Below are positions 12,001 to 15,000 of a stretch of DNA of 64,000 nt, in pieces. A program made the position numbers. This DNA comes from a plasmid: the NCBI RefSeq assembly GCF_056746865.1, contig NZ_JBWKMP010000004.1; one strand, 5' to 3'. Position 1 is the stretch's first letter, and every line of letters begins with the position of its first letter.

Positions 12001-15000
12001 GACACGAAAAACTGCGCGCCGAAGTGGCGGAGGTGGCCAATGCCATGTGCGACCTGCGTACAACCATGAATGAGATGGAGCAGCGGTACAGCTTTAATGC
12101 CGACACCCTGCCGGAACGTCTGGTGCGTCAGACGCTGTTTCGCGCAAACCGCCTCCTGATGGAGGCATATACCGAAATTCTGGAACTGGAAGCGTGCTTT
12201 AAAGATTGAGAAGGAGACGAGAATGTACGGAACATGCGAAACGCTATGCCGGGAGCTGGCAGTAAAGTATCCGGGAGACATGCCGCTGATGCTGGTTATC
12301 TGGTCCCCGGAAGAGATTCAGGCACTGGCTGACGGTATGGAAATTTCTCTGACCGGTCATGAAATCAGGACCGTCCTGGCACGCCTGGAGGACATCCCGG
12401 AAGACCAGCGGATTGAGTCCGGTATTTCTTCCGCTGCGGTGATGGAGATTATCCGCAACGAGAGCGAAAACCGCCTGGTGACCGTCCCTGCTGAACTGCT
12501 GGCGTCCCTGATTCAGACCGCTGAACAGGCATTGTGGAAACGTGAATGGGCCGCCCGGGATCATGGCCTCGCCGTCCCGGAATGCGTCACCCGCCGTCAG
12601 GAGGTGGTTAATCAGGCCCGCACCCTGCTGAAAAACAACACACACGAAAACGACTGATGTTATCGCCGCCTGCCCTGCGGGCGGCGATACAGGGAGAACG
12701 CTTAATCATGAACGAAAACAGCACGCTGAACGCACTGATTTGTCGTCACGCCCGCAACCTGCTGCTGGCGCAGGGCTGGCCGGAAGAGACGGATGTTGAC
12801 CAGCGTAACCCGAAGTATCCGGGCTGGATCAGCATTTATGTTCTGCTGGATGCGCCCCGGCTGGCGACGTTACTTATCAACCGTCACGGCGGCGTACTGC
12901 CGCCGCTCCTGGCCTCCGCCATTCAGAAACTGACCGGAACCGGGGCGGAACTGGTACTGTCCGGCAGTCAGTGGCAGTCGCTGCCGGTACTTCCGGCAGA
13001 CGGAACGCAGGTGTCTTTCCCGTATGCCGGAGAATGGCTGACCGAAGACGAAATCAGGGCTGTACTTGCGGCGGTGCGCGATGCGGTACGCAGTGTCAGT
13101 TGCCGGGTGGCAGAAGATGCGCGGCGTATCCGGGCGGCGCTGACCACCACCGGTCAGACGTTGCTGACTCGCCAGACGCGCCGCTTTCGTCTGGTTGTGA
13201 AGGAAAGCGATCACCCCTGCTGGCTCGATGAAGATGACGAAAACCTGCCCGTGGTGCTCGATGCCATCGTGAACCGGGGAGCACGTTTTTCGTCGGTGGA
13301 AATGTACCTGGTCAGCGATTGTATTGAGCATATCCTGTCCAGTGGGCTGGCCTGCGATGTGCTGCGTATACCGGATGAACCGCCCCGCCGCTGGTTTGAC
13401 CGTGGTGTTCTGCGGGAGGTGGTCCGGGAAGCCCGGGCCGAAATCCGCAGCATGGCGGATGCCCTGGCAAAAATCCGGAAATGATGACGTTGGCGGGGTA
13501 AATCCCCGCCTTTTTCCTGCCGGTCCCCGGACAGAGCACAAAGGAAGTCGCCGCCGGCTCCGCTTTACCCGGCCATGCGGGGCATGGCCTTGTGGGTTTT
13601 CAGTTATGTGGCCTCAGCGTCGTGTGCGGGCTGTGCCGTGCCTCCATCGTAGCCGGGCTGGCAGGGATGCAAGGGTACGCTTCGCCGCTGCGGTCACCCG
13701 GTCCCTCCTTCCCGTCTGCCGTGATTTTCCGGTCGTTCACCCGCTCAGATTTCGCGGTCTCACCCTCCAACTCCCGCCAGCCGTGTGCGTCAGGCTGCGG
13801 CTTCCCTTGCGCCCTGTGCATCCCCGCCTTATCGCCCGGCTTTTATGGAGGCACGGCACCGCCCGGTGTCGCGGAATATGTGAACAACGGAGGAAAACAT
13901 CATGCAATATGCGAAACCTGTCACTCTGAACGTTGAAGAGTGCGACCGTCTCTCCTTTCTACCGTATCTGTTTGGCAACGATTTTCTGTATGCCGAGGCG
14001 TATGTGTACGCGCTGGCGCAAAAAATGATGCCGGAATATCAGGGAGGCTTCTGGCACTTCATCCGCCTGCCGGACGGTGGCGGTTACATGATGCCGGATG
14101 GCGACCGTTTCCACATGGTGAACGGTGCAAACTGGTTTGACCGTACCGTGAGTGCTGATGCCGCAGGCATCATTCTGACTTCCCTTGTGATTAACCGCCA
14201 GTTGTGGCTGTACCACGACAGCGGGGATGCAGGACTGACCCAGCTTTACCGGATGCGCGATGCGCAGTTGTGGCGTCACATCGAATTTCACCCCGAATGC
14301 AACGCGATTTACGCGGCACTGGACTGATTAACGGACGGGGCGGCAATGCCGCCCCTGTAAAGGAGACGAGAACATGTACTGTACTGTTAAAGAAATTATC
14401 CGCGAAGTGCTGAACACAGACGTGCCGGACAGTGAATGCGTTTTTGCCGTGGTGCTGACCCGTGGGGATGTGCGTCACATAGCCCAGGACTGGAGTCTGA
14501 CAGACGATGAGCTGGAAACCGTCATGCAGCGACTGGACGATGCCTTTGCGCATGGTGCGGATGTCAGCATTGTTCACGACGTTGTTCGTGAGCTGATGGA
14601 AGAAAAGCGCGCCAGCCGTCAGGTGACAGTTCCGGCGGTGATGCTGGAAAAAGTGATGGCGCTGGCAGGCAGTGAAATGAAGCGCCTGTATGCCGTCGGG
14701 AGCGAGAACGGGGGCGACGGTGACGCATTCGTCAGGGAAGAACGCGAAGCAATGGACGTTGTGTTACAGGCGCTGGACGGGGAGCACATGTCATGAATAT
14801 CAGCACAGAAACCCGCGAAATTCTGCGCAATTACAAAGCCGTGATTAATGCGCGGCGTCGTGAAATGGGGCAGAAACCGCTCACCACTGCGCAGATTGTT
14901 GATGAAATCTGCGATTTTGTGGCGAATCAGCAGGCTGTATTCCTCGGCGGTCACTACATCCTTCAGGGCAGCATAAACAGGTGATACAGGGGCAGGCGGT

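Follow-up and report, generated by a model that had tools for sequence, protein, structure and literature searches.

The window analysed here is a stretch of 64,000 nucleotides from a plasmid (NCBI RefSeq assembly GCF_056746865.1, contig NZ_JBWKMP010000004.1); the leading region of this IncF-type conjugative plasmid occupies 9.4-27 kb of it. Two genes of this region, both on the + strand, encode the small proteins that we call A (12223-12657, 144 amino acids) and B (14374-14796, 140 amino acids) and that we assign to the family DUF1380 (PF07128). An earlier note on this DNA had described them as a paralogous pair flanking the antirestriction gene klcA. Both open reading frames (ORFs) are present at these positions, and they are the third gene of an M.EcoGIX-type methylase operon (A) and the second gene of the klcA operon (B). 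The first operon opens with a gene for an N6/N4 DNA methylase, a homologue of M.EcoGIX and of YfeA of F (11304-11987, + strand; PF01555, E = 1.6e-40; annotated “DNA methylase”), followed by that of a YubE-family protein of 73 amino acids (11988-12209, +; phrog_4830, E = 1e-33; YubE orthologues at other loci carry PF27407 YubE) and by A, and it ends with the gene of the YchA/YffB/YubG protein (12657-13484, +; phrog_8919, E = 3e-141). The second begins with klcA/ardB, the yfgB of F (13902-14327, +; PF03230, E = 1.5e-26; annotated “antirestriction protein”), and continues with B and with an ORF for a small basic protein of 63 amino acids (14793-14984, +; isoelectric point, pI, 9.1; Hp13 of plasmid pESBL), the ATG of which overlaps the stop of B (ATGA). 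Between the two operons lies a GC-rich intergenic hairpin of 417 nt (13485-13901, +), which corresponds to ssp2 in F, the class 2 single-stranded DNA (ssDNA) promoter of the klcA operon. The description as flanking genes thus fits B, which begins 46 nt past the klcA stop, but A is kept apart from klcA by the yffB/ychA gene and the hairpin; with ssp2 between A and klcA, the two paralogues belong to separate operons and do not form one unit round klcA.

The similarity between the two products had been noticed as a recurring set of short motifs, and most of these hold when the sequences are aligned. Both proteins start with MY.T (MYGT in A, MYCT in B) and both contain SLT..E (ISLTGHE in A, WSLTDDE in B). 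The motif RQVTVPA is exact in B, while A reads RLVTVPA; the C-terminal V..AL occurs in B (VLQAL) but not in A, where the aligned position reads ARTLL. As the earlier note had said, overall identity is low, but the relatedness is real: BLASTP aligns the two over 111 amino acids with 29% identity (E = 2e-7), and their Smith-Waterman score of 83, compared with 30.4 ± 5.5 for shuffled sequences (z = 9.5; Gumbel p = 2e-6), was attained by 0 of 2000 shuffles. At the level of profiles, hhalign of an alignment of 19 A-type sequences with one of 12 B-type sequences gave a probability of 99.8% and an E-value of 2.4e-28 over 136 columns, end to end. The similarity is therefore significant in pairwise as well as in profile alignment.

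With the Pfam model of DUF1380, A scores 167.6 bits (E = 2e-49), aligning to profile positions 1-137 of 137 and lying above the gathering threshold of 26 bits, whereas B scores 19.5 bits (E = 1e-3) over positions 1-102 only, under that threshold. A precomputed PF07128 match is nevertheless present on some B variants of 144 amino acids, and an independent profile of 14 diverse DUF1380 members, from which A-like and B-like sequences had been excluded, recovered B-type proteins at E = 4e-24 in a search of 5.8 billion sequences. Both proteins carry the N-terminal M-Y/F-G-T and the R-x-V-x-V-P-A motif of the family; A matches the Pfam family end to end, while B, aligning to its first ~100 positions, stands as a separate subfamily with a G-G-G-D loop in its C-terminal hairpin and a higher negative charge. 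Judged by their sequences, A and B are to be regarded as full-length homologues, both of them members of DUF1380. A six-frame scan of the window with hidden Markov models returned exactly A and B, with no third copy.

The gene context of the family was examined in nine plasmid lineages of Enterobacterales. Where the window has methylase-YubE-A-YchA-[hairpin]-KlcA-B-63-amino-acid protein, the metagenomic contigs L002/L003 and the Erwinia lineage L011 have methylase-YubE-A-KlcA-B. The same elements with further genes between A and KlcA are found in L006 (the lineage carrying protein P0290, named Mangrovibacter by its source), where KlcA-B is followed by a 63-amino-acid protein and ArdA, and in L008, where it is followed by one of 58 amino acids. 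The short contigs L007 and L009 show KlcA-B. Two natural variants of the module occur: in an Enterobacter plasmid (L004) the order is methylase-YubE-A-ArdA, ArdA (8818-9324 of that contig) replacing KlcA, with neither KlcA nor B, and Serratia plasmids (L010, 4215-6405) have methylase-YubE-KlcA-B and no A. The A-type gene was located 3' of the methylase and YubE in 6/6 cases (the window, L002, L004, L006, L008 and L011) and the B-type gene directly 3' of KlcA in 8/8 (the window, L002, L006, L007, L008, L009, L010 and L011), with a klcA-B gap of 41-56 nt across lineages, compared with 46 nt in the window.

In a neighbor-joining tree of 33 family members, the copies found at the methylase position and those found at the KlcA position were split with a bootstrap of 199/200. 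Identity across lineages within either type is only 25-45%, which together with this split indicates that the two types separated before the plasmid backbones diverged. The split between A and B is older than the separation of the plasmid lineages found in Escherichia, Erwinia, Serratia, Enterobacter and Mangrovibacter. The idea of duplicated genes diverging side by side as a local pair has to be given up, the split being ancient and each type fixed in its own operon. The dN/dS values, taken against a Salmonella IncFIC plasmid, were 0.33 for A, 0.15 for B, 0.05 for KlcA and 0.13 for the methylase, and both A and B are under purifying selection. The gene next to B is also found elsewhere: the 63-amino-acid ORF has counterparts in the corresponding place in L006 (13187-13378) and L008 (7426-7602), with 43-47% identity, and a B-type gene is often followed by an overlapping gene for a basic protein of 58-63 amino acids. 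The ATGA overlap and these distant ORFs suggest a triad of KlcA, B and small protein, with translational coupling.

Neither gene is new. RefSeq names both products “DUF1380 family protein” (WP_000274503.1 for A, WP_000271762.1 for B); in other annotations A appears as YubF, YcgB, YceB, YfcB or Hp10 (pESBL) and B as YubJ, YcjA, YcgC, YfeC or Hp12 (pESBL). The 3.7 kb block that contains them (11300-15000) was at least 80% covered, at 90-100% identity, in 4997 of the best 5000 PLSDB plasmids, and the hosts among these best 5000 matches are mainly Escherichia, Klebsiella, Salmonella and Shigella. The pair is thus already annotated and ubiquitous, an ordinary component of these plasmids and no new kind of system. 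In the IncI1 plasmid pESBL of E. coli O104:H4, Hp10 and Hp12 have the same order and lengths as A and B (435 and 423 nt) around YchA and KlcA/ArdB, and we detected no difference between the two arrangements. The same proteins appear in the Supplementary Table 3 of Samuel et al. (Nature 2024; PMC11541004) as family 7 (YcgB, YceB, YfcB, YubF; 3957 members, median gene position 19 from oriT) and family 14 (YcjA, YcgC, YfeC, YubJ; 3145 members, median position 15), both among the 15 largest leading-region families and both given as “Uncharacterized”. In that table the two stand as unrelated families, whereas here they are paralogues with a fixed operon position each. What we add is that these two uncharacterised families, which are among the largest of the leading region, belong together as a single family, that the split within it is ancient and that each subfamily is tied to one anti-restriction operon.

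DUF1380 as a whole amounts to 259 representatives at 50% identity among 1.84 billion proteins, many of them fragments or chimeras. Where the source names a host it is always a member of the Enterobacterales (Escherichia, Salmonella, Klebsiella, Shigella, Enterobacter, Yersinia, Serratia, Erwinia, Cedecea, Mangrovibacter, Pantoea), and the contigs are almost entirely plasmid-like. The sole PHROG result for A is the unannotated family phrog_9024 (E = 2e-68). A tblastn search of 50,697 phage records found none carrying A or B, so this assignment does not mean that the family is distributed in phages. Searching the literature we found no functional study of DUF1380 or of its gene synonyms, and the PNAS 2023 paper on the evolution of the leading region deals with the ssb/yfhA operon and not with A or B. 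Among the chimeric relatives of A (P0155, P0157, P0127 and P0138), the first ~86-136 residues of A are joined to other sequences: P0155 runs into the C-terminus of YchA, P0157 into that of the DUF3560 protein; in P0127 a whole YchA follows, and in P0138 an unrelated sequence of 340 amino acids. P0155 and P0157 share a breakpoint, right after “SENRQV”, which suggests recurrent deletions within leading regions.

Both paralogues are situated between the partition region (parMR) and oriT, in a zone where all genes of the induced type are on the + strand, which here is the strand templated by the transferred strand. The intergenic region 5' of the methylase operon (10950-11303, + strand) forms a large hairpin on the transferred (-) strand (DNA fold of -101.5 kcal/mol, z = -6.3 vs. 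shuffled sequences, compared with z = -5.1 on the + strand) and is a candidate class 3 ssDNA promoter for transcription of the + strand. In the gap between the operons, the - strand of 13560-13901 folds at -87.8 kcal/mol (z = -5.3) with a long stem at ~13622-13865, and the + strand fold gives z = -3.5. The correspondence with F could be fixed by means of the primers of Fraikin et al. (bioRxiv 10.64898/2026.01.09.698686), of which “yffB up F” lies at 13226-13245 and the “ssp2-specific primer” at 13317-13339; from these positions, 12657-13484 is yffB, the gap 13485-13901 is ssp2 and klcA is yfgB. In F, ssp2 sits between yffB and yfgB (bioRxiv 10.64898/2026.01.09.698686). Using RNA-seq and 5' rapid amplification of cDNA ends, Wen et al. 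(Nucleic Acids Research 2025; PMC12672017) found two operons of pESBL, that of klcA and that of M.EcoGIX, to be induced in fresh transconjugants. The induction starts from ssDNA promoters of two new classes (2 and 3); the class 3 promoter lies 5' of M.EcoGIX and has a homologue in F. The homologous operons of F were likewise induced in transconjugants, the evidence being at operon level (PMC12672017). Promoters of this kind silence themselves on second-strand synthesis (PMC12672017; bioRxiv 10.64898/2026.01.09.698686).

AlphaFold2 models of A and B made from an alignment of 43 sequences were confident (mean predicted local distance difference test score of 88.4 for A and 84.5 for B; predicted TM-score 0.60 for both). 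Compared by the order of their helices, both models show a small helical N-terminal domain, the conserved R-x-V-T-V-P-A linker and a C-terminal hairpin of two ~24-residue helices. The proteins are strongly acidic, with a net charge of -10 for A and -15 for B, and the clade means are -9 (pI 4.8) and -14 (pI 4.4) for proteins of ~138 amino acids; KlcA, at -7, is less acidic than either clade. The residues conserved in both clades are mainly those of the hydrophobic core together with T4, E20, E47, G67, R84 and V-x-V-P-A, so that the shared positions of the family read as the N-terminal M-Y/F-G-T, E20, E47, G67 and R-x-V-x-V-P-A..L. Other residues are conserved in one clade only, in both domains, e.g., the G-G-G-D loop and E123 of the B type. 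Pfam, NCBIfam, PADLOC and profile searches revealed no catalytic motif or known domain in either protein, NCBIfam and PADLOC giving nothing relevant. Sequence searches of PDB chains with A, B and the family profile gave chance-level matches only, and Foldseek of model B against the PDB found no resembling solved structure (best E = 0.95). Against BFVD, residues ~1-88 of A gave a marginal Foldseek match (E = 0.016, target TM-score 0.71) to an unannotated protein of 92 amino acids, without functional information, from the Erwinia jumbo phage pEa_SNUABM_47; at the level of sequence, the 50,697 phage records held nothing similar to A.

For a role of A and B we regard that of accessory establishment or anti-defence factors as the most likely, and we would hold to it with about even confidence. 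It is the role to which their location in the zone of leading-region induction, their co-transcription with two characterised anti-restriction functions, their dispensability in K-12 and their small, acidic, non-enzymatic character jointly point. In such a scheme the recipient would produce A and B within minutes of the arrival of the DNA, and the two would bind proteins as non-enzymatic acidic factors, aiding the plasmid to survive the defences of the host. The C-terminal helical hairpin that the models place behind the small N-terminal domain may mediate oligomerisation. Clade-specific conserved residues hint that the two subfamilies may be specialised, B perhaps acting with KlcA or in its pathway and A in that of the methylase. 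The proposal of the earlier note that the two are variants targeting different host factors is plausible, fitting both these residues and the acidic non-enzymatic character. ArdA (PF07275) and KlcA/ArdB (PF03230) are, like A and B, small, acidic and early-expressed leading-region proteins encoded in the same operons, but we found no similarity of sequence or fold between them and A or B.

Two sets of published experiments bear on this role. In pESBL, M.EcoGIX shields the plasmid from restriction, and in transposon-insertion sequencing the table values of Hp10 and Hp12 were the same as those of M.EcoGIX, which the authors call dispensable for transfer into K-12 (PMC4288162). This silence in K-12 is what a conditional anti-defence gene would be expected to show. 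In F, deletion of ssp2 reduced transfer into wild E. coli strains by 21-fold or more, down to undetectable, and brought a 36-fold loss against the type II system EcoGIII and a 5-fold loss against EcoKI, and another ssDNA promoter put in place of ssp2 restored the EcoGIII phenotype (bioRxiv 10.64898/2026.01.09.698686). Since a promoter swap suffices to restore it, the protection against this type II system comes from products encoded in the klcA operon. To our knowledge, KlcA/ArdB is known solely as an inhibitor of type I systems. The other conserved products of the klcA operon are B and the 63-amino-acid protein. Being members of one family, anciently split and locked to their operons, A and B become defined candidates to account for what is unexplained in the phenotype of the klcA operon. 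We tentatively extend this to the idea, possible but on balance doubtful, that DUF1380 constitutes a new family of anti-defence proteins, divided into two specialised subfamilies, in which B, alone or with the 63-amino-acid protein, would cover defences that KlcA is not known to inhibit, such as EcoGIII, and A would complement or extend the protection given by the single-strand methylase. Thousands of IncF and IncI resistance plasmids carry A and B, and, if the two are anti-defence factors, they would help to decide which hosts these plasmids enter.

Several observations weigh against an anti-defence role. By sequence or structure, A and B match no known anti-restriction, anti-CRISPR or defence family, and we found no published experiment on either of them individually or on inhibition of a defence by DUF1380. 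Acidity and small size are weak and non-specific indicators. KlcA alone, or the 63-amino-acid protein, could account for the phenotype of the ssp2 deletion. The KlcA homologues of IncP and IncN plasmids function without a DUF1380 partner and the Serratia lineage keeps methylase and YubE without A, so that neither paralogue is obligatory for its neighbour; the nine lineages compared are a sample and not a systematic census.

The strict adjacency of genes in all lineages examined could also be explained in another way, namely that each of the two serves the product of a neighbouring gene as a dedicated partner (adaptor, chaperone, modulator of activity or antitoxin-like moderator): A would serve the methylase or YubE, and B would serve KlcA. 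The absence of B where ArdA replaces KlcA and the constant klcA-B spacing of 41-56 nt agree with this. A few database proteins even fuse KlcA to B or A to YchA (P0008, P0060, P0127), which we considered as Rosetta-stone evidence and rejected, as they are singletons that probably derive from frameshifts, assembly errors or deletion chimeras. On the other hand, L010 has methylase and YubE without A. KlcA/ArdB (PF03230) has a range reaching far beyond the Enterobacterales, into hosts from which DUF1380 is not known, and its gene cloned by itself gives an active protein. We consider such a partnership unlikely, if still deserving of attention.

A regulatory function is more improbable, and we give it little weight. 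A and B would here control the expression of the leading region or the processing of the incoming DNA, for example by binding RNA polymerase, the single-stranded DNA-binding protein or the hairpin promoters, or by timing when the operons are switched off. Other plasmids do encode regulators in their leading regions, ArdK and ArdR of pKM101 being examples, the operons of A and B have promoters of different classes, and the helical hairpin of the models could serve as a dimerisation module. However, domain and profile searches did not detect a DNA-binding domain in A or B, the acidic pI of 4.4-4.8 speaks against binding of nucleic acids, and a repressor is not required when ssDNA promoters silence themselves at second-strand synthesis. 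Finally, a recent local duplication that is diverging or decaying, or a chance similarity, with which the identity of just 29% and the score of B under the Pfam threshold might seem to agree, is excluded by the full-length profile alignment (E = 2e-28), the shuffle z of 9.5, the 199/200 split with both types in distant lineages, the purifying selection on both genes with no internal stops, and the conservation of the block at 90-100% in at least 4997 plasmids.

The start of yffB/ychA, the last gene of the methylase operon, is ambiguous. The ATG at 12657 gives a protein of 275 amino acids and overlaps the stop of A, while the RefSeq start at 12708, 51 nt further 3', gives one of 258; the alignment with the PHROG profile begins at residue 18. 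On the other side of the methylase operon lies parMR (9472-10787, - strand). The genes 3' of the 63-amino-acid ORF encode a DUF3560 protein, an S-adenosylmethionine methyltransferase, ssb, psiB and hok, followed by an oriT-proximal SLT gene and by the tra operon from ~30 kb, with TraI at 54341-59611. At 20015-21436 we found an ORF of 473 amino acids where other lineages encode a ParB-N-domain protein of 650-690 amino acids (YfjB/YubM type), and in the PLSDB gene table of the identical plasmid psiB follows DUF905 with no coding sequence listed in between; in the window this gene may be a pseudogene or truncated.

Two copies of a GC-rich element of ~650 bp, 89-95% identical and 3.3 kb apart, are located at 15145-15790, 5' of the DUF3560 operon, and at 18431-19102, 5' of ssb. 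The first forms a very long hairpin on the transferred strand (-178.6 kcal/mol, z = -8.9), and both are most likely class 1 single-strand promoters of the Frpo/ssi type. At the start of the second copy there is a tandem array of ~11 units of the hexamer (CTGCTA)n (18455-18520), which gives rise to poly-Leu and poly-Ser ORF artefacts.

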